Virus record (IMG/VR): IMGVR_UViG_2690316224_000007
DNA length: 24,162 nt
Reading direction: 5' to 3' (one strand)
Origin: a virus
Taxonomy: Duplodnaviria > Heunggongvirae > Uroviricota > Caudoviricetes
In this document: one piece after another, positions 5,071 through 22,720 of the stretch
Numbering within the stretch: the first letter of the stretch is position 1
Layout of the letters: each line of letters starts with the position of its first letter
Program-made: the position numbers and the translations under genes
The notes under the pieces: generated by a model
What the model was told of the DNA's origin: nothing
Databases searched by the model: none
The model's input: only the letters and a program-made list of their open reading frames with translations

Positions 5071-5163
5071 TCCTGAAAAAAATCGGGCGGTGGGTGCGCG
5101 GTGTAAACGGTCACGGAGTCAAACCGGAACACCGCGCACGCCGCCCGCTGACGGGGTCAGTCG

Positions 5164-5964
5164 TTAACCGCGCTTCGCCTTCTGCGTCGCGGTGGTTTTT
5201 CGTGTTGCAGGCTTCCGCGTTGTCTTTTTACTTTTGCTGCTTTCGTCCTGCGCCTGCTGTGCGCTGGCGTCTTCTGGTTCGGCTGCGGAATCGGCTTTTT
5301 TCAGGGCGCGGGAAAGGGTTGCAATCTCGCGTTTCACACCTGCATTCGGGTTCAGGTGCATTGCTTCGCGCAGCAGCTTCAGTGACAGGGCCATGCTGTC
5401 CGCATCACTCAGGCCACGACGGGCAAAGGCGCACGCCTTGCATAATTTGGCGCGCACTTCGTCCGGCATGTCCTGGTCGGTGACAATCTCCCGGAGGGTA
5501 TCCAGTGGTTCGATAAAGGCGGACAAATCCGCGTCGGCATCCGTCCCGGCCTGCGTCAGTACCGGGTTGCAGATTTCTTCGGTCAGCACTGTGGCAGCAG
5601 TACGGCCAAAGTTATCCGGCATAATGAGGTTATGACGGACCACATACGCACCAATACGCAACGCCAGCGGAAGATCGCCGCAGTCAATCGCCCACACCAT
5701 CAGCGTGGCAATCACTTCATCCTGCTGCCCGCCGTCAGCCTCCAGCGTTCCCTCAATCCAGCCGGAAAAGTCCGGCAACAACTCTTTTTTGATGGCGGCT
5801 TTCGCGCTTCTGGCCTGTACGCCCTTAAGCCGGGCCTGTGCCAGACGCAGACGATACAGCACCTCTTCATGCGCGGTACGCGCGGCGTGGTCCACGCCTT
5901 CATTCGCCCGGCCTGCGCGCTGTGCCATCACGTTCTGCCAGTGTTGCTGTGCAGGAGTAATCAT
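5164..5964 (-). CDS. M: Terminase endonuclease (small) subunit gpM
   Basis: 266-aa ORF after N in P2 order, with a basic Lys/Arg/Thr-rich C-terminal tail. Confidence 0.82.
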   Translation of the reverse strand: MITPAQQHWQNVMAQRAGRANEGVDHAARTAHEEVLYRLRLAQARLKGVQARSAKAAIKKELLPDFSGWIEGTLEADGGQQDEVIATLMVWAIDCGDLPLALRIGAYVVRHNLIMPDNFGRTAATVLTEEICNPVLTQAGTDADADLSAFIEPLDTLREIVTDQDMPDEVRAKLCKACAFARRGLSDADSMALSLKLLREAMHLNPNAGVKREIATLSRALKKADSAAEPEDASAQQAQDESSKSKKTTRKPATRKTTATQKAKRG

Positions 5965-8076: not shown

Positions 8077-9828
8077 ATGATTCAGGACGCTTTTGTGCGC
8101 CAGCGTGCGCGGCAACTTTACTGGCAGGGTTATCCGCCCGCAGAAATATCACGTCTGATGGGAATAAACCCGAACACGATTTATGCGTGGAAAAAACGCG
8201 ACCAGTGGGATGAAACGCCACCCGTGCAGCGTGTCACGCAGTCCATCGATGCGCGCCTCATCCAGCTTACTGAAAAACAGAATAAAACAGGTGGTGACTT
8301 CAAGGAAATAGACCTGCTGACCCGGCAGCTTAAAAAGCTGCATGATGGCCAGCCGGATGTGATGGCCGCAGGAAAGAAAGGCCGGGCGAAAAAACTCAAA
8401 AATCATTTCACGCCGGAACAGATTGCCGCACTGCGGGAAAAAATCATCAGCAGGCTGGAGTGGCATCAGCGGGGCTGGTTTGACTCCCTGACCCTTTGCA
8501 GGGAAGCCGGGATACGTAACAGGATGATCCTGAAATCCCGACAGATTGGGGCGACCTGGTATTTTGCACAGGAAGCACTGCTGATGGCGCTGCGTGACGA
8601 TGTGGCACAACCTTACCAGCGTAACCAGATTTTTTTGTCTGCGTCGCGTCGTCAGGCGTTCCAGTTTAAAAGCATTATTCAGAAGGCTGCGGCTGAAGTT
8701 GATGTGGAGCTGAAAGGGGGCGATAAAATCATCCTCTCCAACGGCGCAGAGCTGCATTTTCTTGGTACTTCTGCTGCGACGGCACAGTCCTACACGGGCA
8801 ATTTTTATTTTGATGAATTTTTCTGGGTCAGTCGCTTTGCTGAACTGCGCAAGGTGGCTGGCGCTATGGCAACCCTCAGCGGACTGCGGCGCACCTACTT
8901 CTCCACGCCATCCACCGAAACGCACGAGGCATACGCCTACTGGAATGGCGACCGCTGGAACGAGAAAAAGGCCACGCATAAACGCCAGCGTTTTTCTGTG
9001 GACTGGAAAACGCTGCATAACGGGCTTATCTGCCCTGACCGGACGTGGCGGCAAATTGTCACGCTGGAAGATGTGGTTAATCACGGCTGGAAACACACCG
9101 ATATTGACGAAATTCGTGATGAAAACACCGAAGACGAGTTCCGCAATCTCTATATGTGTGAGTTTGTCCGCGAAGGGGAATCGGCATTTAACCTGAATAT
9201 CCTGATTGGCTGCGGTGTTGACGGATACGACGACTGGAAAGACTGGAAACCTTTTGCTCCCCGCCCGATGGGGAATCGTCCGGTATGGATTGGGTATGAC
9301 GCAAACGGCAGCAGTGGAAACGGCGACAGCGGCGCTGTGTCCGTGGTGGTTCCTCCGGCTGTTCCTGGAGGCCGTTTTCGAACGGTGGAGACGCGACGCG
9401 TTCAGGGGCTGGAGTTTGAAGAACAGGCCAGAGTCATTGAAGAGTTCACGTGTCGCTACAACGTGGAACACATCGGCATTGATGTGACGGGCGGGAACGG
9501 GGAGGCTGTTTATCAGATAGTGAAACGGTTTTTCCCTGCTGCTATTCCGTACACCTTCACGCTGTCATCAAAACGGTCGCTGGTACTGAAAATGCTGCAA
9601 ATAATGCGTGCCGGGCGGTGGGAATATGATCGCGCCGAACGCGAGCTGGTCGCAGCCTTTAACGCCGTGCGTAAGGTGAAAACACCGGGCGGCTTTATCA
9701 CTTACGAAACGGACCGTGCGAGGGGGATCAGCCACGGCGACCTTGCGTGGGCAACCATGCTTGCTGTCATTAACGAACCGATTGGCGGCGAAGGGGAAAA
9801 CGAGCGTTTTACGGTTATGGAGTTCTGA
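8077..9828 (+). CDS. P: Terminase ATPase (large) subunit gpP
   Basis: 583-aa ORF, P2 P-sized, with a strong SD; stop overlaps the Q start (TGATG at 9826-9830). Confidence 0.9.
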   Translation: MIQDAFVRQRARQLYWQGYPPAEISRLMGINPNTIYAWKKRDQWDETPPVQRVTQSIDARLIQLTEKQNKTGGDFKEIDLLTRQLKKLHDGQPDVMAAGKKGRAKKLKNHFTPEQIAALREKIISRLEWHQRGWFDSLTLCREAGIRNRMILKSRQIGATWYFAQEALLMALRDDVAQPYQRNQIFLSASRRQAFQFKSIIQKAAAEVDVELKGGDKIILSNGAELHFLGTSAATAQSYTGNFYFDEFFWVSRFAELRKVAGAMATLSGLRRTYFSTPSTETHEAYAYWNGDRWNEKKATHKRQRFSVDWKTLHNGLICPDRTWRQIVTLEDVVNHGWKHTDIDEIRDENTEDEFRNLYMCEFVREGESAFNLNILIGCGVDGYDDWKDWKPFAPRPMGNRPVWIGYDANGSSGNGDSGAVSVVVPPAVPGGRFRTVETRRVQGLEFEEQARVIEEFTCRYNVEHIGIDVTGGNGEAVYQIVKRFFPAAIPYTFTLSSKRSLVLKMLQIMRAGRWEYDRAERELVAAFNAVRKVKTPGGFITYETDRARGISHGDLAWATMLAVINEPIGGEGENERFTVMEF

Positions 9829-10874
9829 TGAGCAGAAAAAATAAAAAAGTGCGCATGAGTTCACGCATTGATCTCGCTGATGCGCTCAGGAAAGAATCAT
9901 CGCTCAGTGCATTCACATTTGATGGTCCTTATCGCCTGACCGGGCATGACCTGCTGGACAATATGTACTGTGCTGATAACGGGCGGTGGTATGAAACCCC
10001 GGTGGACTGGTACAGTCTGGCAAGAGCCGCCCGGCAAACGTCCTGGCATCAGTCTGCGCTTTACTTTAAGCGTAATGTATTGCTCGGGTGCTACATCCCG
10101 CACCCGCTGCTTTCCCGGCAGGATTTCTCGGCGCTGGCGCTGGACTGGTTTGTGTTCGGTAACGCATTCCTTGAGCTTCGGAGCAATATGCTCGGCGAAC
10201 CGCTTAAATTACGGCACGCCCTGGCGAAATACATGCGACGCGGAAGCGATCTTGAATCATGGTGGTATGTGCAGGATGGCAAGGACGCGTTCCAGTTTCG
10301 CCCTGGCAAAGTGTGCCACCTGATGAATCCGGATATTAACCAGGAAATCTACGGCATGCCGGAATATCTTGGCGCATTACTCTCGGCCAGCCTTTCTCAT
10401 TCGGCGGACATGTTCAGAAAACTGTACTACGACAACGGATCCCACGCCGGGTGCATCATCTACATCGGTGCAGCGCAGGTAAACCGCGAAAGCATGGACT
10501 CCCTGAAAGAAACGTTACAGGGTGCGCGTGGTGGTGGTGCATTTAAAAACGTGCTCATTCATGCGCCCAACGGGGGCAAAGAAGGGGTGCAAATTTTGCC
10601 GTTCCAGCAGATCACCGCAAAGGATGAGTTCATGAATGTTAAGGCGGCATCCCGTGATGATGTGCTGGCTGCGCACCGCGTTCCGCCGCAACTGATGGGG
10701 GCGATGCCGGGCGAAAAAAGTGCGTTTGGTGATGTGGAGAAGGCCGCGCGGGTTTACGCAATTAACGAGCTGATGCCCGTCATGGAGGCCATGAAGCACA
10801 TCAATGACTGGCTTGGCGAAGAGGTGATCCGCTTTAACCCTTACGCACTGTTAGACACCCAGCCCACATCCTGA
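9828..10874 (+). CDS. Q: Portal protein gpQ
   Basis: 348-aa ORF translationally coupled to P; size and position as P2 Q; ends facing the expected cos region. Confidence 0.9.
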   Translation: MSRKNKKVRMSSRIDLADALRKESSLSAFTFDGPYRLTGHDLLDNMYCADNGRWYETPVDWYSLARAARQTSWHQSALYFKRNVLLGCYIPHPLLSRQDFSALALDWFVFGNAFLELRSNMLGEPLKLRHALAKYMRRGSDLESWWYVQDGKDAFQFRPGKVCHLMNPDINQEIYGMPEYLGALLSASLSHSADMFRKLYYDNGSHAGCIIYIGAAQVNRESMDSLKETLQGARGGGAFKNVLIHAPNGGKEGVQILPFQQITAKDEFMNVKAASRDDVLAAHRVPPQLMGAMPGEKSAFGDVEKAARVYAINELMPVMEAMKHINDWLGEEVIRFNPYALLDTQPTS

Positions 10875-10920: not shown

Positions 10921-11328
10921 CCCCGACTCTCCAGCTCCTGTATCAGTCAGATAATTTCACGACGCTTTCCTGCTGATTGCCATCATCGACAGTCAGACTC
11001 TTACGCAATCCCACCGCGTTGACTGCATGTTCTCGCCGTCTCAGTGCGATTTTGACGGCCTTACCTTTCACCCCATCAAATCAAAAGCCCTCACGTCTTT
11101 TTCACGCTCAGCGTGAGAAATACAGCCATTCTGTTCTATCTCTGCGACATCGTTCAGGGAATGCTATTTACCCCCTGAAACGCGGGCTGTTCCCCCGTCA
11201 CCTGCGCGCAGAAAAAACGCGTTTTTTTGTGCACGTACGGATCCTTGACGGATCCAGCCACCACGCGGGCCGGTAGTACAAAAAGTCGTTCAAAAAAATT
11301 GTGCAAACTTGTGCACTATCGTGCAAAC

Positions 11329-11351
11329 AAAAAAAGCGCCTTATCGGCGCT
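11329..11351 (-). terminator. Rho-independent terminator (minus strand)
   Basis: Minus-strand reading AGCGCC-GATAA-GGCGCT followed by TTTTTTT, a few nt after the stop of the 11361..11630 ORF. Confidence 0.55.
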
Positions 11352-11360
11352 TCAAAAGTA

Positions 11361-11630
11361 TCAATTGTTGCTGTGTATTAATCGCCAACCACGAACATAT
11401 GCTTCATAGGCATCTCTGTGCCTTACAGTTCCAGCCTGGCTAAACGGAATGTTAGCTAAAACTAAATCATTCTGAGCCATAGCGCGTCCTTCAAGCGCAT
11501 CTTTTATGCCTAGCTCAAAAGCACAGGCAGCGCATTTGTGCCGACCTTCTTGTCCTTGATATTCAGGGAGAGACAGAAATGTTGGATTATAACGATGAGG
11601 GTTCTTGCAAATACCTGTTTTAGCCCGCAC
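11361..11630 (-). CDS. Hypothetical protein (89 aa, GTG start; contains C-x-x-C)
   Basis: ORF in the AT-richer islet with a GAGG SD 8 nt before a GTG start and a terminator immediately downstream. No recognisable homology; could instead begin at an internal ATG (39 aa). Confidence 0.35.
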   Translation of the reverse strand: MRAKTGICKNPHRYNPTFLSLPEYQGQEGRHKCAACAFELGIKDALEGRAMAQNDLVLANIPFSQAGTVRHRDAYEAYVRGWRLIHSNN

Positions 11631-11765
11631 TTTATTTACCTCATAGGAAAAATATGCGTGCCTTTACAGAGGTGCGTGTAAGCAATAAAATATACGACGC
11701 ACATTTTGATTTACTTCGGAAGGCACGCATATCAGGTTAAGTGAGTCCGACCGAGTTTTACGCCC

Positions 11766-11799
11766 CAATAGTTGCTGCTATTGGGGCGTTTTGCATGGA
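11766..11799 (+). terminator. Intrinsic terminator-like hairpin (plus strand)
   Basis: 12-bp perfect stem ACGCCCCAATAG / CTATTGGGGCGT with a 6-nt loop, followed by TTTTG. No annotated plus-strand gene ends here, so it may end a small transcript (see findings). Confidence 0.45.
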
Positions 11800-11994
11800 C
11801 AATGCCGCGCAATTATCTTGTCGCTCACAATGCGAACGATCTTACAAAAAGGCACATTACTGTCAAGATAATTGATCGTTTTAATCGATAGATAATAGAC
11901 AATCTATTTGTTTAACAGATCGATTATTGAAGTAAGTGTGCCAGATGGAATGATACTGTCTCTATAAACGTGAGCATTTTTCGCGCAGATGCTT

Positions 11995-12306
11995 TTACTC
12001 AGGAAATAACGCCCGGATATTCCCAGCCATCTGGCTGGTTATCTTAGCCACTGGTGCAGACTGTGCTTCAAACTTTTTTGAGCTGATTTGTGTCACAGGT
12101 AATATCTCATCATCAGCCCATGCGGCCAGTCGGTAAGCCTCTGCCGGATTCGTCTTCAGAAGTGCCAGCCCGGCCAGAAAAGCCACGCGTTGGCCGCTTT
12201 TGCGGGCTTCTGGTGTAAGGCTGTCCAGCCAGGCGCATGCTTCTCCTTCGTTCTTGACGGCAGCTGGCTTCAGATAGAAACTTATTCTTCTGGTTGGTGT
12301 CGTCAT
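11995..12306 (-). CDS. parR: ParR/StbB-like centromere-binding protein (ribbon-helix-helix type)
   Basis: 103-aa ORF 4 nt downstream of parM, with an AAGGAG SD in the parM 3' end. Blocks RRISFYLKP, ACAWLDSL..E, RVAFLAGLAL and NIRALFPE align with plasmid R1 ParR as recalled. Confidence 0.65.
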   Translation of the reverse strand: MTTPTRRISFYLKPAAVKNEGEACAWLDSLTPEARKSGQRVAFLAGLALLKTNPAEAYRLAAWADDEILPVTQISSKKFEAQSAPVAKITSQMAGNIRALFPE

Positions 12307-12310
12307 TGGT

Positions 12311-13270
12311 TTACTCCTTGTTCATTGCGTACAGCCCATTAACCAGAGCAAATTGTGGCACCCCGTCCGCGATGAAAGTCGCATTAACTCCGCAGGCTTC
12401 GCGGATAGCGGGTGCCACAATCTCCGCCCCGCCACCGACAACCATCACCCGCCCGTAACCCGAAAAAACCGCCAGAGCGCGGATCACGCGTTGTTTCAGT
12501 GTTTCTTCCTTTTCACGAATAATCGCCATCAGGCTGGCGTAATGCGCGTCATTGTGGATGTGCTGGCGCAACCAGGCTTCATCATGGCGATGTTCGATAA
12601 TGGTATTGGCGATGTGGTGACTGGTGCGCATACCGTTAGTGGCCATCACCGACAGTACGGCATCGGCCATCAGAGAAACGCCTACGTGTGGATCGCAAAA
12701 CACCTGGCTGATACCTGCCAGTTGCCCCTGAACCTTTGCCACATCCAGCGTGGTTCCGCCCAAATCCACAATCAGCAGGGATTCAAACGGACTCATGTCA
12801 GCCAGTGCCTTAAAGCCAGCCGGAATGGATTCAGGCATAACCCGCACGTTACGGATAGTGAATGCTTCGCCGTTCTGGTACTCCACCGGGCGCATAACGT
12901 TCGCTTTTTTGCGGTTGATGTTGGCCATGTCCGGCTGTGCGTTTGTGTCGAAATACTCGCTCAGTGGCAGGGTGACAACCACATCCACCTCCCGTGGCGT
13001 GATGCCTGATTTGACCAGCGCGTGATGAATGGCAATGACATTCACATCGCTGTACTGGTATTGCGTGTCGGTCGTCTGGACAAAGCGATCGCTGACCGGA
13101 TCAAAACCATAGCGCACGCCATCAAGCATGTAGTTCGCGGGCTGCGTGCCACCGAACGGCGCAGACCATTCCGACTTGAAGCTGTTCGGGCTGATGGCGT
13201 TGCGGCGTTCGCCGTTCTCAGTCCATGCCAGCTTGATGTTGGTGGAGCCGTCGTCGATACAAATTCTCAT
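12311..13270 (-). CDS. parM: ParM/StbA actin-like segregation ATPase
   Basis: 319-aa ORF with a near-complete set of ParM blocks matching R1 ParM as recalled: IDDGSTNIKL, SPNSFK, YSDVNV, HHAL, TLPL, RKKAN, FTIRNVRVMPESIPAG, SLLIVDLGGTTLD, GVSL, LKQRV, FSGYGRVMVVGGGAE, LVNGLY. AGGAAAA SD before the ATG. Confidence 0.9.
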   Translation of the reverse strand: MRICIDDGSTNIKLAWTENGERRNAISPNSFKSEWSAPFGGTQPANYMLDGVRYGFDPVSDRFVQTTDTQYQYSDVNVIAIHHALVKSGITPREVDVVVTLPLSEYFDTNAQPDMANINRKKANVMRPVEYQNGEAFTIRNVRVMPESIPAGFKALADMSPFESLLIVDLGGTTLDVAKVQGQLAGISQVFCDPHVGVSLMADAVLSVMATNGMRTSHHIANTIIEHRHDEAWLRQHIHNDAHYASLMAIIREKEETLKQRVIRALAVFSGYGRVMVVGGGAEIVAPAIREACGVNATFIADGVPQFALVNGLYAMNKE

Positions 13271-13301
13271 CTCGATTTTCCTTATGTTGATTAATTAATC
13301 G

Positions 13302-13415
13302 TTTACGGGATTTTTAAATCCCGTTTTCGCCTGTTTTGTGCGCGCTTCATATATCGCGGCGCGTTTTTTGCTCATTTACGGGATTTGTGAATCCCGTTTC
13401 TGTCTGTTTTTTGTT
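13302..13415. repeat. Two ~39-bp direct repeats, each with a palindrome (ACGGGATTTTTAAATCCCGT / ACGGGATTTGTGAATCCCGT), spanning the A stop codon and the parM upstream region
   Basis: Repeat 1 at 13302..13340, repeat 2 at 13377..13415, 75 bp apart; each has CCCGTTTy and CTGTTTT sub-motifs. A TTAATTAAT -10-like element lies between repeat 1 and the parM SD. Confidence 0.5.
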
Positions 13416-16169
13416 TCCACTGGTCAGGCTACCCCGCAGCAGGTCTGCTTTGCGGCGGGCGCGTTCAGTGGTTTCACTGATTCTCTGTGCGTGCTCTGCG
13501 TCACGAATGGCGCGCAGCATGTCAGAAAGCACGGTAACGGGGGTTTTCATGGTGTTCTGGTCCTGCTGAAGTGTGGATGCCAGGCGTGCGGCGGCTTCGG
13601 GGTCTGATGTCCCCAGCTGTTCCAGATAGCTGGCGACCGGGTTATGGCGGATCTCCGTACTGCTTACGCCGTGGTTACGGCTCAGGCGCTGCCAGAGCTG
13701 CGTGATCCGGCTGTCCGGTCGGGTATCCGGTTTGCGTACAATTTCAAATCCCTGCGGTGCAATGTTGCTGCCGTCAACGTACAGACTGCCGCCCCGTAAC
13801 AGGTGCTGCATCTGCTGTTCACCGATATGCAGGCCGAGAGATTCAGCAGACTCCCGCCATTCTTTAGCGAGTAGTTCGTGGTTATCAGGCAAAGGCCGCT
13901 GCTGTTTGCGGCTCTGTGTCCAGCTCTGCATTTCATCACGGCTGTTTTTTGCCTGTTTGTCACGAAGCGAACGCATCAGCGCCCGGCGTTCGTGCCGTTT
14001 CAGTGAGCGCATCCATTCGTTCACTTCAACGCCGTCAGGGAGCTGCGGCCACGGTGCTGGCCGTTCTTCCGGCTGTTCTGTCCCGTTGTTGTCCGTTTCC
14101 TGTACACGGGGACAGTTATTGCCACGAGTCCAAGGGGCGGCAGGGCCGCCCTGAAGGTCAAAACCATTTTCGCGGGCGCTGTCTTCCGCTTCCGGTTTGC
14201 GTCTTACCAGCTTCCAGTTATCCGGATGCGTGCATACGCGGGAAGACTCCCCAATGAGCGGCGACCAGATCCCGTAAATCTGTACACTCTGCTCGCCGTA
14301 ATCGTTCAGCTCATCTGCGAGGTCGTAGGCTGTGCGAATCAGGTAGTCCTTGCGCGGAACAAGTACGCCCCCCTGTTTTTCAATGTAGGTGGCAAAACAT
14401 CCGGCATCAGCGGCAGCGAGTACCGCATCCATTGCGTCATCCTTCAGCCGTTGCGGGCCTTCCGGGTTGCGTGCCATCTGGCTGGCAAGGCGGCGGAGTT
14501 CACGCCACACCTGACGGGAGGGGATGCCAAAGAACTGGAACTGGCGGACCCGGTGAAGGCGCGCCCAGCCGATGGCACGCTCCACGCTCTCGGCCATTGA
14601 TTTACCTGTTTCGTGGTCAACGCGTGGCTTGCCCGTTTTCGGGTCGATGCCATCCACGGCACGGCTGTCCAGGTTTTTCCCGATGTAGGTGGCGATGTAG
14701 CTGGTCGGTGTGCCTTTTGAGCCGTCGACGTACTCCGCTTTAAAACGCGGAGTTATGTCATCGCCCAGCTCGTGACGATCTTCCTGAATGGCAATATCGC
14801 GGGTGTGGGACACAATGGTGTCGATTTCTTCCGGATGAGCAAAGACCATCATATGCCAGTGCACGGTGCCGTCATGGTGAGGCTCCACCGTGCGGATGCC
14901 ATACCAGCGCAGGCCGTCGCGGTTCAGTTTCTTGCGGACCGCCGCAAAAAACGAGTTAACCAGGTAATCGCTGGAGTCGCGCATAGTGGCCCCGTTCCAT
15001 TTGGGATTCGGATGACCGTTCTCCGTTGTTGCGTGGTATTTTGACGGGCAGGTGACAGTCAGAAACACCGCTCTGTCGCCACGGGCTTCGGCCAGAAGTT
15101 CCAGCCCCTTCATGGTGGCCATCATTTCTGCCTTACGGTGAACCGGGTTACTTACTCCCGCGTAATACACCGTCTCGAGATCAATCGTGAACCCGTCTTC
15201 ATTTTCCAGCATGAAACTTTTCAGGAAATCGCGTGTTTTCTCGCGCTGTGCGCGAAACTCGCTTAACGCATCCTGGCTCAGATAGGGCGATGTTTTTCTG
15301 GAAACCAGACAGGCGGCGCGGAGTTGTTCTTCTCTCCACTCGCAACGTAACAGCCACAGTTTGCGTTTCCACCATTCCGCACAGGTCAGGCGAAGGACTG
15401 CGCCCGGCAGCAGCTCCGTGTCCGGTTCGTTCCTCCGGTCTTTATCTGTTGTCAGTGCGTCATAATGTGGAGGCATGATGTGCAGGTGTAACGCCATGCG
15501 GGCCAGCATCTGATACGTCTTCAGCGTTACATCCATGGTCAGTTCGCCATCGGTCGCGCCAAAGCCATCGCAGAGTTTTTCGAAGGTGCTGCTGAACATC
15601 GCCGCCGTCATGGTGGCCAGCGTCTGTATCTGGTGTTTGTTGAGCTGCGGCAGGTAAAGCAAATCGTCCAGGCGTTCGCGTCCGGCAAGGGAGCGATAAC
15701 CCGGTGTCAGCCAGCGTCCGTCAGTGCGATCCAGACGTTCGAATATTTTGCGCAGGGTTCCGCGTGCATAGCGTTCCGCCTGCCAGCTCTTTTTGCCTTT
15801 CCGGCGATCGACTTCCTGTTTTTTGCGCAGGAAGGAGAGGTGGCGAATAAGCGGATCGCGCAGATAGGACGGCAGCAGGCGCAGCGAGGCCATGGCTTCA
15901 TCCACCGTGCCGCGTGCCTGTCTTCTGGCGTCTCCTGCCAGCGTGATGGTTTTGTCCTGTTTTTCCTGTGCGTCCAGGCTTTTATTAATCAGGTTGCCCA
16001 GTGGCGTGGCAGAGAACGCCGCATCAGCCTTTTCCTGTCGGTGCTCGTTCTCTGCCTGGTAGGCATCCAGCCAGGAGGAAAGCGCAGATTCAGGTGCGGG
16101 GATCCCCGTTCCTTCACGCCCCACTGCGTGGCGCGGTTGTTGCCAGTCCCTGATGTACTCTGTCGTCAT
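13347..16169 (-). CDS. A: Replication initiation endonuclease gpA (rolling-circle HUH initiator), 940 aa
   Basis: HUH motif seen as VEPHHDGTVHWHMMVF and the two-tyrosine catalytic motif as TSYIATYIGKN (Y-x3-Y). Position downstream of the small early genes matches P2 A; about 180 aa longer than P2 A at the C-terminus. Confidence 0.88.
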   Translation of the reverse strand: MTTEYIRDWQQPRHAVGREGTGIPAPESALSSWLDAYQAENEHRQEKADAAFSATPLGNLINKSLDAQEKQDKTITLAGDARRQARGTVDEAMASLRLLPSYLRDPLIRHLSFLRKKQEVDRRKGKKSWQAERYARGTLRKIFERLDRTDGRWLTPGYRSLAGRERLDDLLYLPQLNKHQIQTLATMTAAMFSSTFEKLCDGFGATDGELTMDVTLKTYQMLARMALHLHIMPPHYDALTTDKDRRNEPDTELLPGAVLRLTCAEWWKRKLWLLRCEWREEQLRAACLVSRKTSPYLSQDALSEFRAQREKTRDFLKSFMLENEDGFTIDLETVYYAGVSNPVHRKAEMMATMKGLELLAEARGDRAVFLTVTCPSKYHATTENGHPNPKWNGATMRDSSDYLVNSFFAAVRKKLNRDGLRWYGIRTVEPHHDGTVHWHMMVFAHPEEIDTIVSHTRDIAIQEDRHELGDDITPRFKAEYVDGSKGTPTSYIATYIGKNLDSRAVDGIDPKTGKPRVDHETGKSMAESVERAIGWARLHRVRQFQFFGIPSRQVWRELRRLASQMARNPEGPQRLKDDAMDAVLAAADAGCFATYIEKQGGVLVPRKDYLIRTAYDLADELNDYGEQSVQIYGIWSPLIGESSRVCTHPDNWKLVRRKPEAEDSARENGFDLQGGPAAPWTRGNNCPRVQETDNNGTEQPEERPAPWPQLPDGVEVNEWMRSLKRHERRALMRSLRDKQAKNSRDEMQSWTQSRKQQRPLPDNHELLAKEWRESAESLGLHIGEQQMQHLLRGGSLYVDGSNIAPQGFEIVRKPDTRPDSRITQLWQRLSRNHGVSSTEIRHNPVASYLEQLGTSDPEAAARLASTLQQDQNTMKTPVTVLSDMLRAIRDAEHAQRISETTERARRKADLLRGSLTSGNKKQTETGFTNPVNEQKTRRDI

Positions 16170-16175
16170 ACTGAT

Positions 16176-16541
16176 TTACTGCGTCATACCGTTCAGGGTG
16201 TCACGGCAAACGGCAGCCAGCCGCTGAATTTCCAGCACGGTGTCTTCTGTGTCGGCATAGCGATGTGTGATGCGGATGCTGTCGGCAATCACATCGACGA
16301 TTGCAGAGGATGGGCGCTGGTAAATGCCAATAACGGACGGAGTGCCACCTTCAATGCGGTAAAGCCTGTAATTTCCCTCGTGGCTGTCAATCATGTAGCG
16401 ACCATCAATAACAATCTTTCCGTCAGCGAGCTGCGGTACAGGCAGGGATTTCAGGTACATGTCATAACGTTCACGCACGCGAACGGCAAGATCACGCTCT
16501 GTGTTGAGCAGGTATTCAAGAAAGTCGTTGGCGAGAATCAT
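16176..16541 (-). CDS. Hypothetical early protein (121 aa) immediately upstream of A
   Basis: AAGAGGA SD 8 nt upstream of the ATG; stop lies 6 nt before the A start. Present in all three repeat copies with a few amino-acid differences. No recognisable family. Confidence 0.6.
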   Translation of the reverse strand: MILANDFLEYLLNTERDLAVRVRERYDMYLKSLPVPQLADGKIVIDGRYMIDSHEGNYRLYRIEGGTPSVIGIYQRPSSAIVDVIADSIRITHRYADTEDTVLEIQRLAAVCRDTLNGMTQ

Positions 16542-16613
16542 TGCGGCAATCCTCTTGTTACAGATGTGCGAAGGCCTCCCGCCGCAAGGTGCAGGAAAGG
16601 CCCGGAACAGGAA

Positions 16614-16844
16614 TTAATGGAGTTTGTTTTGCTGCTGGATGAGCTGCTGAAGCTCGCGCAGATCATCCGCCAGATAACTGAAAACAGCGGATGAGTAGAG
16701 GTTTGAAAGTTCGCAGCTACGCTCATGCAGCATATTGATGTGCATGATTTTAGCGACGCGGAATGCGCGGGAAAGTCTGCGGTTGATTTCAGTCTGGATG
16801 TGACGACGCTCCGCGATAGCGCGGTGCTGTTTGCGGTTTGCCAT
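16614..16844 (-). CDS. Hypothetical small basic protein (76 aa)
   Basis: AGAGG SD 7 nt upstream of the ATG; basic helical N-terminus (NRKQHRAIAERRHIQTEINRRL); identical in all three copies. Confidence 0.5.
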   Translation of the reverse strand: MANRKQHRAIAERRHIQTEINRRLSRAFRVAKIMHINMLHERSCELSNLYSSAVFSYLADDLRELQQLIQQQNKLH

Positions 16845-17211
16845 GGTGTGGCCTCTTTGGTTGTAAGTTTTGAAAACTCACCATCCAGAGCTGCGAAACT
16901 GTGGGTGGCGAGACGTACGGGGTTCGCAGTACCGGCAACCAAAGAACCCGGCCCGACCGAAGTCGGCCCCGTACGCCCCGCCATAATTCTGACGCGAAAA
17001 AAACGTGGCAATACAGTACGCACAAAAAAACCGCTGGCGCGGTTGTGCGCTTTGGTTGTCAGCAGGCTGCGAAACCCGGCACCCGTTTTATGAGGTGCAG
17101 CGAAAATGTAACCTGACTGATTGCGGCATGGCAAGCGGTTTTTTTGTGAGAACGGCATACTAAAAAATCCTGATACTGCTCCGGCCAGCGGTTTGCACTG
17201 GCCGGGTGTCA
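16845..17211 (-). ncRNA. Structured non-coding spacer between the SPFH gene and the 76-aa gene (candidate terminator cluster or small RNA)
   Basis: Minus-strand reading shows, in order, an 8-bp-stem hairpin CCGGCCAG..CTGGCCGG just after the SPFH stop, a hairpin AACCGC-GCCA-GCGGTT followed by TTTTTTT, a second T7 run, and a CCGAC-UUCG-GUCGG tetraloop hairpin. The only long ORF across it is low-complexity and out of frame with the 76-aa gene. Identical copies at 20135..20501 and 21523..21889. Confidence 0.4.
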
Positions 17212-17636
17212 TTACTTCACGGGAACGAACGGAACAGCGGTGTTACTGGTCATGTATTGCGGCAGCGTGCCGTTCCATTTGTTGATCGCTTCCAGCTCCA
17301 TAACGCCGGGATTCTGGCGCAGAGCTTCGCCGCGTAAACGAATGGCGTCGGCTTCAGCCTGGGCTTTTGTGCGAATGGCATCGGCCTGTCCGGCAGCTTC
17401 TGCGCGCAACATGTTGGCTTCTGCTTCGCGCTGCTTGACTTCCTGTTCGCGTTGCAGGGTTTTCTGGTTTGCCGTGACTTTGGCATTAATGCTGTCGATA
17501 ACGGTTGGCGGGTATTCCGGCTTACCCACATAAGAGAGGCTCATTACCTGAATGCCGATAGGTGTCGTTTCTGCCTGAATGTCTTTAAGTGCTGAATCCA
17601 GCAGTTCAGACTTGCCACCGTCGATAAATTTATCGN
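17212..17636 (-). pseudogene. 3' fragment of the SPFH lipoprotein gene (copy 1), truncated at an N
   Basis: Colinear with 21890..22314 of the full-length gene; coding continuity ends exactly at the ambiguous base at 17637. Confidence 0.65.
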
Positions 17637-17637
17637 G
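17637..17637. other. Single N: probable contig join
   Basis: SPFH-gene sequence lies directly before the N and mid-gene A sequence directly after it, which cannot be one contiguous locus. Confidence 0.8.
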
Positions 17638-19459
17638 TGCGAATCAGGTAGTCTTTGCGTGGAACAAGTACGCCGCCCTGTTTCTCTATGTAGGTGGCAA
17701 AACATCCGGCATCAGCGGCAGCGAGTACCGCATCCATTGCGTCATCCTTCAGCCGTTGCGGGCCTTCCGGGTTGCGTGCCATCTGGCTGGCAAGGCGGCG
17801 GAGTTCACGCCACACCTGACGGGAGGGGATACCAAAGAACTGGAACTGGCGGACACGGTGAAGGCGCGCCCAGCCGATGGCGCGTTCCACGCTCTCGGCC
17901 ATTGATTTTCCGGTTTCGTGGTCAACGCGTGGCTTGCCCGTTTTCGGGTCGATGCCATCTACGGCGCGGCTGTCCAGGTTCTTTCCGATGTAGGTGGCGA
18001 TGTAGCTGGTTGGCGTGCCTTTTGAGCCGTCGACGTACTCCGCCTTAAAGCGTGGGGTAATATCATCACCCAGCTCGTGACGATCTTCCTGAATGGCAAT
18101 ATCGCGGGTGTGGGACACAATGGTGTCGATTTCTTCCGGATGAGCAAAGACCATCATATGCCAGTGCACGGTGCCGTCATGGTGAGGCTCCACCGTGCGG
18201 ATGCCATACCAGCGCAGGCCGTCGCGGTTCAGTTTCTTGCGGACCGCCGCAAAAAACGTGTTAACCAGGTAATCGCTGGAGTCGCGCATGGTGGCCCCGT
18301 TCCATTTGGGATTCGGATGACCGTTCTCTGTTGTGGCGTGGTATTTTGACGGGCAGGTGATGGTCAGAAACACCGCTTTGTCGCCACGGGCTTCGGCCAG
18401 AAGTTCCAGCCCCTTCATGGTGGCCATCATTTCTGCCTTACGGTGAACCGGGTTACTTACTCCCGCGTAATACACTGTCTCGAGATCAATCGTGAACCCG
18501 TCTTCGTTTTCCAGAATGAAACTTTTCAGGAAATCGCGTGTTTTCTCGCGCTGTGCGCGAAACTCGCTTAACGCGTCCTGGCTCAGATAGGGCGATGTTT
18601 TTCTGGAAACCAGACAGGCGGCGCGGAGTTGTTCTTCCCGCCACTCGCAACGTAACAGCCACAGTTTGCGTTTCCACCATTCCGCACAGGTCAGGCGAAG
18701 GATTGCGCCCGGTAACAGTTCCGTATCCGGATCGCTCTTGTTCAGAGCTTCGTAATGTGGCGGCATGGCGTGCAGGTGTAACGCCATGCGGGCCAGCATC
18801 TGATACGCCTTCAGCGTTACATCCATGGTCAGTTCGCCATCGGTCGCGCCAAAGCCATCGCAGAGTTTTTCGAAGGTGCTGCTGAACATCGCCGCCGTCA
18901 TGGTGGCCAGCGTCTGTATCTGGTACTGGTTGAGCTGCGGCAGGTAAAGCAAATCATCCAGGCGTTCGCGTCCGGCAAGGGAGCGATAACCCGGTGTCAG
19001 CCAGCGGTGGTCGGTGCGGTCCAGACGTTCGAATATTTTGCGCAGTGTTCCGCGCGCGTAGCGTTCAGCCTGCCAGCTCTTTTTGCCTTTCCGGCGATCG
19101 GCTTCCTGTTTTTTGCGCAGGAAGGAGAGGTGGCGAATAAGCGGATCGCGCAGATAGGACGGCAGCAGGCGCAGCGAGGCCATGGCTTCATCCACCGCGC
19201 CGCGTGCCTGTTTTCTGGCGTCTCCTGCCAGTGTGATGGTTTTGTCCTGTTTTTCCTGTGCGTCCAGGCTTTTATTAATCAGGTTGCCCAGCGGCGTGGC
19301 GGAGAACGCCGCATCAGCCATTTCCTGGCGGCGCTCGTTCTCTGCCCGGTAGGCATCCAGCCAGGAGGAAAGCGCGGATTCAGGAACGGGGATCCCCGTT
19401 CCTTCACGCCCCACTGCGTGGCGCGGTTGTTGCCAGTCCCTGATGTACTCTGCCGTCAT
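17638..19459 (-). pseudogene. A: gpA copy 2: N-terminal ~607 codons, truncated at the N
   Basis: Colinear with 14340..16169 but with many substitutions and an indel (HYDALTTDKDRRNEPDTELL versus HYEALNKSDPDTELL), i.e. a divergent allele rather than an exact duplicate. Confidence 0.7.
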
Positions 19460-19465
19460 AGTGAT

Positions 19466-19831
19466 TTACTTCGTCATGCCATTCAGGGTGTCGCGGCAGA
19501 CGGCAGCCAGCCGCTGAATTTCCAGCACGGTGTCTTCTGTGTCGGCATGGCGATGTGTGATGCGGATGCTGTCGGCAATCACATCGACGATTGCAGAGGA
19601 TGGGCGCTGGTAAATGCCAATAACGGACGGGGTGCCATCTTCAATGCGGTAAAGCCTGTAATTTCCCTCGTGGCTGTCAATCATGTAGCGACCATCAATA
19701 ACAATCTTTCCGTCAGCGAGCTGCGGTACAGGCAGGGATTTCAGGTACATGTCATAACGTTCACGCACGCGAACGGCAAGATCACGCTCTGTGTTGAGCA
19801 GGTATTCAAGAAAGTCGTTGGCGAGAATCAT
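19466..19831 (-). CDS. 121-aa early protein, copy 2
   Basis: Differs from copy 1 at three residues (G to D, Y to H, terminal Q to K). Confidence 0.55.
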   Translation of the reverse strand: MILANDFLEYLLNTERDLAVRVRERYDMYLKSLPVPQLADGKIVIDGRYMIDSHEGNYRLYRIEDGTPSVIGIYQRPSSAIVDVIADSIRITHRHADTEDTVLEIQRLAAVCRDTLNGMTK

Positions 19832-19903
19832 TGCGGCAATCCTCTTGTTACAGATGTGCGAAGGCCTCCCGCCGCAAGGTGCAGGAAAGGCCCGGAACAG
19901 GAA

Positions 19904-20134
19904 TTAATGGAGTTTGTTTTGCTGCTGGATGAGCTGCTGAAGCTCGCGCAGATCATCCGCCAGATAACTGAAAACAGCGGATGAGTAGAGGTTTGAAAGT
20001 TCGCAGCTACGCTCATGCAGCATATTGATGTGCATGATTTTAGCGACGCGGAATGCGCGGGAAAGTCTGCGGTTGATTTCAGTCTGGATGTGACGACGCT
20101 CCGCGATAGCGCGGTGCTGTTTGCGGTTTGCCAT
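19904..20134 (-). CDS. 76-aa basic protein, copy 2
   Basis: Identical to copy 1. Confidence 0.45.
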   Translation of the reverse strand: MANRKQHRAIAERRHIQTEINRRLSRAFRVAKIMHINMLHERSCELSNLYSSAVFSYLADDLRELQQLIQQQNKLH

Positions 20135-20501
20135 GGTGTGGCCTCTTTGGTTGTAAGTTTTGAAAACTCACCATCCAGAGCTGCGAAACTGTGGGTGGCG
20201 AGACGTACGGGGTTCGCAGTACCGGCAACCAAAGAACCCGGCCCGACCGAAGTCGGCCCCGTACGCCCCGCCATAATTCTGACGCGAAAAAAACGTGGCA
20301 ATACAGTACGCACAAAAAAACCGCTGGCGCGGTTGTGCGCTTTGGTTGTCAGCAGGCTGCGAAACCCGGCACCCGTTTTATGAGGTGCAGCGAAAATGTA
20401 ACCTGACTGATTGCGGCATGGCAAGCGGTTTTTTTGTGAGAACGGCATACTAAAAAATCCTGATACTGCTCCGGCCAGCGGTTTGCACTGGCCGGGTGTC
20501 A

Positions 20502-20768
20502 TTACTTCACGGGAACGAACGGAACAGCGGTGTTACTGGTCATGTATTGCGGCAGCGTGCCGTTCCATTTGTTGATCGCTTCCAGCTCCATAACGCCGGG
20601 ATTCTGGCGCAGAGCTTCGCCGCGTAAACGAATGGCGTCGGCTTCAGCCTGGGCTTTTGTGCGAATGGCATCGGCCTGTCCGGCAGCTTCTGCGCGCAAC
20701 ATGTTGGCTTCTGCTTCGCGCTGCTTGACTTCCTGTTCGCGTTGCAGGGTTTTCTGGTTTGCCGTGAC
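20502..20768 (-). pseudogene. 3' fragment of the SPFH lipoprotein gene (copy 2), truncated at the N run
   Basis: Colinear with 21890..22156; ends at NNNNNN. Confidence 0.65.
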
Positions 20769-20774
20769 NNNNNN
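20769..20774. other. NNNNNN: probable scaffold gap or contig join
   Basis: Flanked by SPFH-internal sequence on the left and the A 5' end on the right. Confidence 0.8.
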
Positions 20775-20847
20775 CGGGGATCCCCGTTCCTTCACGCCCC
20801 ACTGCGTGGCGCGGTTGTTGCCAGTCCCTGATGTACTCTGCCGTCAT
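20775..20847 (-). pseudogene. A: gpA copy 3: first 24 codons only
   Basis: MTAEYIRDWQQPRHAVGREGTGIP then the N run. Confidence 0.65.
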
Positions 20848-20853
20848 AGTGAT

Positions 20854-21219
20854 TTACTTCGTCATGCCATTCAGGGTGTCGCGGCAGACGGCAGCCAGCC
20901 GCTGAATTTCCAGCACGGTGTCTTCTGTGTCGGCATGGCGATGTGTGATGCGGATGCTGTCGGCAATCACATCGACGATTGCAGAGGATGGGCGCTGGTA
21001 AATGCCAATAACGGACGGAGTGCCACCTTCAATGCGGTAAAGCCTGTAATTTCCCTCGTGGCTGTCAATCATGTAGCGACCATCAATAACAATCTTTCCG
21101 TCAGCGAGCTGCGGTACAGGCAGGGATTTCTGGTACATGTCATAACGATCACGCACGCGAGCGGCAAGATCACGTTCTGTGTTGAGCAGGTATTCAAGAA
21201 AGTCGTTGGCGAGAATCAT
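20854..21219 (-). CDS. 121-aa early protein, copy 3
   Basis: A third allele (substitutions in the RVRDRYDMYQKSL segment relative to copies 1 and 2). Confidence 0.55.
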   Translation of the reverse strand: MILANDFLEYLLNTERDLAARVRDRYDMYQKSLPVPQLADGKIVIDGRYMIDSHEGNYRLYRIEGGTPSVIGIYQRPSSAIVDVIADSIRITHRHADTEDTVLEIQRLAAVCRDTLNGMTK

Positions 21220-21291
21220 TGCGGCAATCCTCTTGTTACAGATGTGCGAAGGCCTCCCGCCGCAAGGTGCAGGAAAGGCCCGGAACAGGAA

Positions 21292-21522
21292 TTAATGGAG
21301 TTTGTTTTGCTGCTGGATGAGCTGCTGAAGCTCGCGCAGATCATCCGCCAGATAACTGAAAACAGCGGATGAGTAGAGGTTTGAAAGTTCGCAGCTACGC
21401 TCATGCAGCATATTGATGTGCATGATTTTAGCGACGCGGAATGCGCGGGAAAGTCTGCGGTTGATTTCAGTCTGGATGTGACGACGCTCCGCGATAGCGC
21501 GGTGCTGTTTGCGGTTTGCCAT
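21292..21522 (-). CDS. 76-aa basic protein, copy 3
   Basis: Identical to copies 1 and 2. Confidence 0.45.
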   Translation of the reverse strand: MANRKQHRAIAERRHIQTEINRRLSRAFRVAKIMHINMLHERSCELSNLYSSAVFSYLADDLRELQQLIQQQNKLH

Positions 21523-21889
21523 GGTGTGGCCTCTTTGGTTGTAAGTTTTGAAAACTCACCATCCAGAGCTGCGAAACTGTGGGTGGCGAGACGTACGGGG
21601 TTCGCAGTACCGGCAACCAAAGAACCCGGCCCGACCGAAGTCGGCCCCGTACGCCCCGCCATAATTCTGACGCGAAAAAAACGTGGCAATACAGTACGCA
21701 CAAAAAAACCGCTGGCGCGGTTGTGCGCTTTGGTTGTCAGCAGGCTGCGAAACCCGGCACCCGTTTTATGAGGTGCAGCGAAAATGTAACCTGACTGATT
21801 GCGGCATGGCAAGCGGTTTTTTTGTGAGAACGGCATACTAAAAAATCCTGATACTGCTCCGGCCAGCGGTTTGCACTGGCCGGGTGTCA

Positions 21890-22720
21890 TTACTTCACGG
21901 GAACGAACGGAACAGCGGTGTTACTGGTCATGTATTGCGGCAGCGTGCCGTTCCATTTGTTGATCGCTTCCAGCTCCATAACGCCGGGATTCTGGCGCAG
22001 AGCTTCGCCGCGTAAACGAATGGCGTCGGCTTCAGCCTGGGCTTTTGTGCGAATGGCATCGGCCTGTCCGGCAGCTTCTGCGCGCAACATGTTGGCTTCT
22101 GCTTCGCGCTGCTTGACTTCCTGTTCGCGTTGCAGGGTTTTCTGGTTTGCCGTGACTTTGGCATTAATGCTGTCGATAACGGTTGGCGGGTATTCCGGCT
22201 TACCCACATAAGAGAGGCTCATTACCTGAATGCCGATAGGTGTCGTTTCTGCCTGAATGTCTTTAAGTGCTGAATCCAGCAGTTCAGACTTGCCACCGTC
22301 GATAAATTTATCGGTGGTCATTTTGCTGGCCAGTCGGTTGAGTGCGTCGGCGATCTTCTGGCGCAGGTCAGTGTCGGTAATGTCATCCACGCCTTTGCGG
22401 TAGGTCTGAAACACTGTAGTAACTTTGGATGGATCAACCTTGTAGGCCACACCGATGTGATAGCCGATGGTTGTGCCGTCACTCATCTGAAAGCTGAACG
22501 GCTCATCGTAGGTCTTCATTTGTTTGAAGGTCGGGAAGATGTAAACCTCGGTATTCCAGCCAGTCCAGTAGCGACCAACGCCAACCACTTCGCCAACGCC
22601 TTTGTCGTCGCCCAGCTTGTTGACTTTGATGCCCACATTACCTGGCTCAACGCGATCGCAGCCAACCAGCAGGATGGCGGCAAAAAGCGGGAGAATCTGA
22701 AAGAGTCTGAATTTCTTCAT
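21890..22720 (-). CDS. SPFH/Band-7 (stomatin/prohibitin/HflK-C-like) lipoprotein, predicted periplasmic-face inner-membrane anchored
   Basis: 276-aa ORF with signal peptide and lipobox LLVGC followed by Asp at +2 (C-D-R-V). SPFH-like core and a C-terminal Ala/Glu/Gln/Arg-rich coiled-coil (REQEVKQREAEANMLRAEAAGQADAIRTKAQAEADAIRLRGEAL). ATGA overlap with the upstream membrane-protein gene. Confidence 0.8.
   Translation of the reverse strand: MKKFRLFQILPLFAAILLVGCDRVEPGNVGIKVNKLGDDKGVGEVVGVGRYWTGWNTEVYIFPTFKQMKTYDEPFSFQMSDGTTIGYHIGVAYKVDPSKVTTVFQTYRKGVDDITDTDLRQKIADALNRLASKMTTDKFIDGGKSELLDSALKDIQAETTPIGIQVMSLSYVGKPEYPPTVIDSINAKVTANQKTLQREQEVKQREAEANMLRAEAAGQADAIRTKAQAEADAIRLRGEALRQNPGVMELEAINKWNGTLPQYMTSNTAVPFVPVK

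Follow-up and report, generated by a model that had tools for sequence, protein, structure and literature searches.

Type I toxin-antitoxin loci such as ldr/rdl, symE/symR and hok/sok set a short RNA, made of a stem-loop and a terminator, opposite the long structured leader of a small gene of a mobile element that encodes a short membrane peptide. P22 sar, lambda OOP and the ctRNAs of plasmids are small constitutive antisense RNAs with a terminal GC hairpin, and the C proteins of type II restriction-modification operons are helix-turn-helix (Xre-like) proteins with C-boxes. P2-like phages carry cargo between gene A and cos, at the tin/old position, and this hotspot contains a putative partition system in about one quarter of them (Rousset et al. 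2022, PMC9122126); the main text of that paper mentions neither antisense nor non-coding RNA for the hotspot. We have analyzed an islet at positions 11361-11994 of a sequence of 24,162 nucleotides (nt) (IMG/VR record IMGVR_UViG_2690316224_000007, the window in what follows), which is a P2/186-like prophage (Peduoviridae, Xuanwuvirus). The islet holds an 89 amino acid open reading frame (ORF), ORF89, and a structured leader, and it is an autonomous, self-contained cargo ('moron') cassette in the variable gene A-cos hotspot. The model that we favour, and consider probable, is that of a prophage cargo cassette in which an antisense RNA controls ORF89, a member of a zinc-protein family that is linked to GATC.

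The cassette resembles the type I loci in that a short RNA of stem-loop and terminator is predicted opposite the long structured leader of a small gene, with the ribosome-binding site partly sequestered in that leader. An antisense RNA complementary to the mRNA is thus found here as a prediction. The product is different: where type I toxins are small, usually hydrophobic proteins of less than about 60 amino acids, ORF89 is an 89 amino acid, soluble, zinc-binding protein without a transmembrane segment. Also unlike the type I loci, the antisense RNA spares the ribosome-binding site and the start codon and matches no Rfam family; the best Rfam score on the window was 22 bits, against gathering scores of 43-45 (sar, ctRNA_pGA1), and covered the terminator hairpin only, while seven related loci gave no Rfam match on the leader. 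With sar, OOP and the ctRNAs the cassette is predicted to share a small constitutive antisense RNA, a terminal GC hairpin and an accessory or regulatory phage target, but likeness to the sar and ctRNA families is confined to the terminator, while target gene, position and the remainder of the RNA are unrelated. The P2 gene A-cos cargo offers the same place, a high AT content, an own promoter and terminator, and exchange of alleles between near-identical phages; a difference is that ORF89 has no match to a defence protein in PADLOC. Like a C-protein gene, the ORF89 family gene is small and lies between or next to DpnII-type methylase and endonuclease genes, an arrangement seen in the family (32 loci with both genes within 3 kilobases (kb)) and not in the window. 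Unlike the C proteins, ORF89 has a CHCC zinc motif in place of a helix-turn-helix, its fold has no known relative, and no operator was found for it. The regulatory logic is familiar; as far as the searched libraries show, there is no description of the RNA, of the protein fold or of the association with restriction-modification.

The predicted antisense RNA and the ORF89 leader

The cassette would consist of two transcription units that converge and overlap. A sigma-70-type promoter on the minus strand (TTGACA / 16 nt / TAAGAT, 11866-11839) would give rise to an mRNA with a structured 5' leader of about 200 nt (11631-11832), followed by ORF89 and an intrinsic terminator (11353-11333). The predicted leader contains a GC hairpin (11789-11760), a long hairpin (11732-11652) and then, as read from the sequence, the Shine-Dalgarno motif GAGGT (11638-11642), 7 nt upstream of the GTG start codon. 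The -10 box of this promoter overlaps with a GATC at its 3' end, and a second GATC lies 7 nt upstream of the -35 box; equivalents of the promoter (TTGAnn / 16-18 nt / TAnnAT) are present in 16 of the 17 lineages tested. On the plus strand, a second putative promoter lies inside the leader (11663-11691; -35 TTTACA at 11663-11668, a 17-nt spacer and -10 TAAAAT at 11686-11691). It would drive a cis-antisense RNA of about 95 nt (at most about 100 nt, with predicted ends at ~11698 and ~11795), fully complementary to the central part of the ORF89 leader and ending at a terminator at 11760-11792. This terminator has a 12-base pair (bp) stem (11760-11771 / 11778-11789), a 6-nt loop and a run of four Ts (11789-11792), the first of which is the last base of the stem; on the minus strand no T tract follows the stem. 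The 12-bp stem of the original prediction is therefore present, and perfect, with its four Ts on the plus strand only, and the two terminators of that prediction are best described as one on each strand and not otherwise.

The comparative evidence comes from related phages. A 45-sequence alignment of related loci contained no sufficiently conserved stretch for searching, and a 7-sequence alignment was used instead; a covariance model built from six sequences then retrieved the antisense RNA in about 45 loci, in every case upstream of a zinc-protein gene and in the opposite orientation to it. Phage homologues differ widely in the sequence of the 250 nt that precede their start codons, but share the order of elements. 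This order comprises a promoter (with GATC 6-7 nt upstream of the -35 box), a 5' hairpin, a purine-rich linker, a GC-rich hairpin, an A-rich linker, a long hairpin, a conserved TGTAAAG, and finally a hairpin or pairing that includes the Shine-Dalgarno motif. The leaders of other lineages, which repeat this order, measure 159-185 nt, mostly 170-174 nt. Within the part of the leader that contains the antisense promoter, the only invariant columns are, on the opposite strand, CTTTAC, exactly 17 variable nt, and TAnnnT, with the same spacing in every lineage. It is at these positions that sigma-70 promoters are best conserved, and we therefore read them as such a promoter. Of 73 homologue loci outside the phage clade, 2 have a similar antisense promoter pattern, and in just one of these is it close to this position.

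The predicted antisense RNA of every lineage begins with a short single-stranded 5' end (often CGAGATCTCAAG), followed by an A/U-rich stem-loop, and its 3' part is a strong GC stem-loop followed by a pyrimidine-rich tail; in the related phages its length would be about 70-80 nt. In the alignment of the antisense strand 95.0% of the cells are paired, compared to 71.6% in shuffles; changes on both sides are seen in 19 of 22 pairs, and when the partners are slid by 1-3 columns at most 54% of the cells pair. Thirty distinct variants of the terminator stem-loop occur across the lineages and are visible without any model, and on the antisense strand these stems contain 8 G.U pairs against at most 3 doubtful A.C pairs. 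RNAalifold on a plain MAFFT alignment of the antisense genes found no pairs, the hairpins being out of register. The mirror image on the sense strand, given its own model and alignment, has 85.2% of cells paired, and numerous variants that form G.U on the antisense strand correspond to C.A in the sense orientation (by our tally of the pair tables, ~80 G.U cells against ~9). On account of both the difference in pairing and the G.U bias, the structure appears to be selected on the antisense strand, which is the plus strand of the window. A small regulatory RNA on this strand, ending at the 11760-11792 terminator, is thus a well backed prediction.

Two pairs of near-identical phages differ by an inversion of the antisense terminator loop, with the stem unchanged. 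The loops of L051 and L052 (cggcaa and ttgccg) are exact reverse complements and those of L064 and L065 (ttagcg and cgccaa) nearly so; such inversions are a signature of template switching at a hairpin. At another locus, the plasmid-prophage of Arsenophonus (L005), positions 5145-5341 match isrK and the C4 antisense RNA of Rfam. This is an immunity region of the P1/P7 type, about 2 kb from the copy of the cassette.

The long hairpin of the leader (11652-11732) is made up of a perfect 13-bp inverted repeat and an inner GTGCGT/ACGCAC stem. Its loop includes the -10 box of the antisense promoter. The repeat had been noticed before; its left arm is at 11652-11664 as given then, and its right arm is shifted by one position, to 11720-11732. 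Perfect inverted repeats of at least 12 bp arose in none of 300 dinucleotide-preserving shuffles of 11631-11994. Among 36 near-identical copies the arms are invariant and polymorphisms are confined to loops and linkers, a pattern compatible with constraint. Because the plus-strand start at ~11698 excludes the left arm, both arms would be transcribed on the minus strand only, and it is more likely that the repeat acts there, in the ORF89 leader next to the ribosome-binding site. In the minimum-free-energy fold of the minus strand the long hairpin is extended and its 5' flank pairs with the Shine-Dalgarno region. A further perfect inverted repeat, of 11 bp (11810-11820 / 11864-11874, CAATTATCTTG / CAAGATAATTG), brackets the ORF89 promoter, and a third copy of its AGATAAT lies at 11890; it is not conserved in the L040 allele (see below) and may be due to chance or be a lineage-specific operator.

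In the window the predicted antisense RNA would pair with leader positions 38-135, and in most other lineages with about 32-105. This stretch takes in the GC hairpin together with the 5' arm of the long one, and excludes the 3' arm, the Shine-Dalgarno motif and the start codon. The possible effect of pairing was modelled in 16 lineages by constraining the complementary stretch as unavailable and scoring the accessibility of the region from the Shine-Dalgarno motif to the start codon. Modelled accessibility was unchanged or lower in 15 of the 16, and dropped by at least 0.15 in ten (for example, from 0.46 to 0.18, from 0.49 to 0.16 and from 0.35 to 0.14); for the window it went from 0.55 to 0.47. 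Since blocking the stretch leaves the modelled accessibility unchanged or lower, negative control is favoured, and the antisense RNA most likely holds ORF89 expression down. Antisense pairing would capture the 5' arm of the 13-bp leader hairpin, and the 3' arm freed in this way would help to close the ribosome-binding site. Alternatively, or together with this sequestration, the extended duplex could be a substrate of RNase III.

The ORF89 family and GATC

ORF89 (11361-11630, minus strand) starts with GTG and carries the C-x-x-C motif that had been pointed out earlier, which reads C-A-A-C and lies at residues 33-36. Its own minus-strand terminator (11353-11333), also noted before and recovered by a terminator scan, begins 8 nt past the stop codon and reads GAAGCGCC-GATAA-GGCGCTTT followed by TTTTGTTTGC. 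The description of ORF89 as an orphan does not hold. It matches phrog_3941, a family without known function, over its full length (residues 4-89 on profile positions 1-86 of 86, E = 6.3e-49), and an exhaustive HMMER search yields 172 family representatives at 50% identity, while a profile search yields 1,606 clusters at 90% identity. The family counts are taken from the exhaustive search, a word-indexed protein search having returned two near-identical matches only. Few members of the 1,606 clusters are named by their source, all as 'hypothetical protein', and none contains a Pfam domain. ORF89 is thus a real gene of a large uncharacterised family.

The protein has a CHCC zinc motif (C8, H12, C33, C36) within the sequence motifs ICKxxHRY, GRHKCxxCA and SQAGxVRH, and conservation throughout the family centres on C, H, C, C and two RH motifs. 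Its AlphaFold model is confident (predicted local distance difference test, 92.9), and the protein is predicted to be soluble, with helices and a beta bridge, and to lack a transmembrane segment or a hydrophobic helix. Searches of Pfam, NCBIfam, PADLOC, the PDB and BFVD gave no match and no relative of known function or fold, and at E <= 0.1 neither ORF89 nor ParR nor ParM, the products of the neighbouring partition genes, matched a PADLOC defence profile. The domain also occurs as a tandem duplicate and in fusions to WYL and DndB-like domains, and NOV_C nuclease-like domains are found fused to two N-terminal copies of it. These fusions suggest a nucleic-acid-binding or sensing module.

The closest relatives of ORF89 (50-63% identity) are stand-alone genes at classic cargo positions of other temperate phages. 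In a Providencia phage and the Arsenophonus prophage-plasmid the homologue separates the antiterminator Q from the lysis genes and is encoded on the other strand, whereas a P22-like Salmonella phage has it after cI and ahead of N; enterobacterial and Gilliamella phages generally carry it as a stand-alone cargo gene. On enterobacterial and Aeromonas plasmids the family gene is surrounded by toxin-antitoxin and defence genes. A different arrangement is typical of Firmicutes, Bacteroidota, Spirochaetota and other phyla, where the gene is wedged between a D12-class N6-adenine (Dam-like) methyltransferase gene 9-24 nt upstream and a DpnII-family endonuclease gene 30-48 nt downstream. A D12-class methylase, a DpnII endonuclease or both are encoded within 3 kb in 44 of about 70 non-enteric loci, and both are in 32. 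Gene orders vary at these loci, the zinc-protein gene being located between the two, after them, or divergently; in a Lactiplantibacillus plasmid the order is Dam methylase, a 429 amino acid protein, zinc protein. Among the loci L096-L166 the methylase beside the small zinc protein often has an N-terminal HTH_17 domain, and a conserved GGTATTGCTATTATTCGAG..TAGAATATAAT element is found in the promoter upstream of the methylase gene at most loci examined.

DpnII systems recognise GATC. Because of this and of its Dam-like methylase and DpnII neighbours, the family is taken to be functionally tied to GATC methylation and restriction, a link of the zinc protein with DpnII, Dam or GATC for which we found no description in the searchable literature. 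The islet contains GATC at 11838, 11874 and 11918, in agreement with the GATC-containing palindromes of the original prediction; this corresponds to 8.2 sites per kb over 11631-11994, compared to 2.6 per kb in the whole window. Phage leaders contain 3-5 sites per 246 nt, against about 1 expected by our own estimate. Such enrichment fits a methylation-linked function of the cassette and does not prove one. Taken with the neighbourhoods and domain fusions of the family, it makes ORF89 a probable accessory factor that binds nucleic acid and is linked to the methylation of GATC adenines and to restriction. The gene seems to have been recruited by temperate phages whose hosts are Dam-positive, as an accessory gene under tight control; in view of its own promoter and its genomic positions, it is likely to be expressed from the prophage.

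A broader proposal, which we make tentatively and regard as doubtful when taken as a whole, is that ORF89 has a zinc-finger fold not described so far, that it recognises or acts on nucleic acid in which the GATC adenines are methylated or unmethylated, and that in many phyla it would be a third component of DpnII systems. It would then have been captured by temperate phages of Dam-positive Enterobacterales and Orbaceae under an antisense RNA particular to the phage clade, and could serve methylation-linked defence, counter-defence or an epigenetic switch from the prophage.

The cassette as a cargo module

The islet is located just downstream of the parMR partition module, between gpA/parM/parR and the portal gene, in the order gpA, parM, parR, ORF89, portal; the place between gene A and cos/portal and the variability among related phages are those of P2-like hotspot cargo. 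On one side are the genes of the large terminase (8077-9828, plus strand) and the portal (9828-10874, plus strand), followed by the cos-proximal spacer, and on the other side parR (11995-12306; Pfam Plasmid_stab_B), parM (12311-13270) and the replication gene A (gpA, 13347-16169), all on the minus strand. ParM and ParR match partition systems of the R1/StbAB type. The islet is AT-richer than its flanks, as had been stated, with a GC content of 0.365-0.455 over ~11200-12100 and 0.51-0.58 outside. Over 11200-12100 the sequence is 98-99% identical to Escherichia phages 520873 and 503458, and Xuanwuvirus prophages show likewise 98-99% identity for the window. Copies of at least 95% identity are present in 166 of 5,426 complete E. 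coli genomes (~3%), those of O111:H- 11128 and FRIK2455 among them; every copy is chromosomal, and a search of a plasmid collection found none.

A second P2-type allele (loci L040-L044) is only ~50% identical to the islet between flanks, in gpA and portal, that are 96-100% identical. Since parM is 96-98% identical between the alleles, parR ~50% and the zinc protein ~60%, it appears that parR, the leader and the zinc-protein gene were swapped jointly as a block. The parR divergence is itself uneven: the N-terminal half and the C-terminal tip of the gene at 11995-12306 are conserved and the middle is divergent. In lambdoid and P22-like phages the cassette is present without parMR, and hence it is an independent module.

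The best conserved non-coding part between the two alleles is a palindromic block upstream of the ORF89 promoter (11870-11930; ATCGATCTGTTAAACA, ATAGAT..ATCTATCGAT), which is 80% identical, compared to 25-57% for the sequence directly around it. Of the three GATC sites of the islet, two are in this block and the third overlaps the -10 box; the block abuts the ORF89 -35 box, ending 4-7 nt away. Its position makes it a candidate operator, for which a protein-binding role is plausible. No 8-mer is common to the block and the region upstream of parM. A 42-nt direct repeat is present there (13299-13340 / 13372-13413), both copies of which include a 20-bp palindrome (ACGGGATTTnnAAATCCCGT); the first copy occupies the space between parM and gene A, and the second falls within the 3' end of gene A. 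This repeat could represent the parC centromere, or else a second copy of the gene A 3' end that an insertion of cargo has left behind.

Elsewhere in the window, the replication region (13347-21890) is tandemly duplicated, with repeats of at least 300 nt at 16097/19387/20775, 14332/17637 and 15452/18742. It contains two gene-A ORFs, of 940 amino acids (13347-16169) and 609 amino acids (17630-19459), and three 224 amino acid ORFs of the Ash family with equal Pfam scores (16538-17212, 19828-20502, 21216-21890), and reflects either a true amplification or an error of assembly. A 276 amino acid ORF of the SPFH/Band 7 family (21890-22720) is found in the early region. Between the ORF89 terminator and the cos-proximal region there are three short direct repeats (11295-11328) of the (A/T)TTGTGCAAAC / TCGTGCAAAC type.

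Alternative explanations and significance

The original prediction read the plus strand as a transcript of 120-150 nt that begins upstream of 11652 and encodes a 28 amino acid peptide, with translation gated by the 13-bp repeat. The ORF (11654-11740), its AGGA motif and the bracketing repeat all exist, and folding of the plus strand over 11640-11800 gives a very stable structure (z = -7.1). However, the sole promoter-like site on the plus strand, which is also the element invariant across all lineages, puts the start at ~11698. The left arm and the ATG at 11654 lie upstream of this point and outside the RNA, so the repeat cannot occlude that start codon in the predicted transcript. Moreover, other lineages have either no ORF or an unrelated one at this position, and the peptide has no family match among Pfam, NCBIfam, PADLOC or phrog profiles. 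We regard this reading as highly improbable. What survives of the original prediction is the small regulatory RNA, given the invariant sigma-70 promoter and the covarying hairpins of related phages, and not the translationally gated small protein; comparison with related loci bears out a large ORF89 family, but not the 28 amino acid ORF. The converse explanation dispenses with a functional antisense RNA. The hairpins would then either function only within the sense leader or insulate parMR, ORF89 and late transcription from each other in both directions, and TGTAAAG...TAnnnA would be a motif of the sense-strand RNA, or one bound by a protein, that resembles a promoter by chance. Every hairpin can indeed form on the sense strand, the mirror covaries there as well (85% of cells, both-sided changes in 18 of 22 pairs), and the T tails of the antisense terminators are weak. 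Against this stand the match of the invariant positions to the most conserved positions of sigma-70 promoters at a fixed 17-nt spacing, with bases between them that vary freely, the wobble pairs that favour the antisense strand (95.0% versus 85.2%; ~80 versus ~9 G.U cells), and the GC hairpin without any T tract on the sense strand. We consider a leader without antisense RNA to be improbable.

Other explanations concern the role of the protein and of the DNA upstream of it. ORF89 could be the growth-inhibiting component of a type I toxin-antitoxin-like module, its mRNA silenced by an unstable antisense RNA, so that the prophage is stabilised, or infection aborted, when antisense transcription stops. 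The predicted cis-encoded antisense RNA overlaps a long structured leader with a partly sequestered ribosome-binding site, a layout that we take to recall ldr/rdl and symE/symR; the cassette occupies defence and accessory hotspots of phages and lies beside toxin-antitoxin and defence genes on plasmids, and tight dual control suggests a costly product. But 89 amino acids, predicted solubility and zinc binding, and the lack of a hydrophobic helix do not suit such a toxin, no PADLOC model was matched, and the presence of the same protein in methylase/endonuclease operons of many phyla without the antisense promoter argues against intrinsic toxicity. A module of this kind is unlikely, though less so than the readings above. 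Finally, the palindrome-rich stretch at 11860-11994 might be a parC centromere or a second ParR-binding site and as such stand outside the ORF89 cassette. It follows directly after parR, is AT-rich with many short repeats, and includes the best conserved non-coding block between the two alleles; the allele comparison itself says nothing on ParR binding, as the N-terminal DNA-binding part of ParR is conserved between them. In R1/StbAB-type partition systems, however, parC is located upstream of parM, and there the window has its pair of 20-bp palindromes (13305-13324, 13378-13397), with no 8-mer in common with the block. The block itself ends 4-7 nt from the ORF89 -35 box, the usual place of a promoter operator or UP element. 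A centromere at this site thus seems quite unlikely.

Several observations weigh against the model of an antisense-controlled, GATC-linked cargo gene and must be kept in mind. The covariance-model alignments are fitted to the structure that they test, and pairing is somewhat inflated as a result. The lineage of the window is atypical and divergent: it has a 27-nt insertion after the antisense -10 box and lacks the first antisense stem-loop of the other lineages, and the predicted antisense RNA has a weakly structured 5' half without the left arm of the repeat. The covariance model matches the window only at 11742-11797 (plus strand), which is the terminator half, and does so weakly (local E = 0.011). 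The T run of the antisense terminator is short, with 4 nt here and a TTCCC-type tail in other lineages, and both transcript start sites are placed by consensus promoters. The absence of any variation in the 13-bp repeat among the 36 close copies means that there is no covariation in it, and the change in accessibility is a product of thermodynamic modelling and is small for the window itself. As regards the protein, ORF89 has no detectable relative of known function or fold, and the GATC link is one of association. Taken by themselves, the three GATC sites within 364 nt of the window lack significance, and the promoters of the restriction-modification operons, checked for GATC clusters with GATC-dependent autoregulation in mind, contained none. 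With these points taken into account, an antisense-controlled cargo cassette of a GATC-linked zinc-protein family remains the model that we consider probable.

The cassette is common. The allele of the window is found in ~3% of complete E. coli genomes, and phages of the P22-like and lambdoid types from Salmonella, Providencia, Proteus, Yersinia and Gilliamella have other alleles. Rfam, Pfam, NCBIfam, PADLOC and the PDB contain no entry for the RNA or for the protein. As a predicted antisense RNA-target pair it is new and cleanly delimited, and its comparative support, an invariant promoter and covarying stems, is unusually strong. For the P2 hotspot, the analysis shows that the 'partition system' cargo travels with a second, independent module. 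For the family as a whole, it suggests that GATC-specific restriction-modification systems have a small component that had gone unrecognised, and it provides a testable entry to the question of how phages of Dam-positive hosts may exploit or sense adenine methylation.

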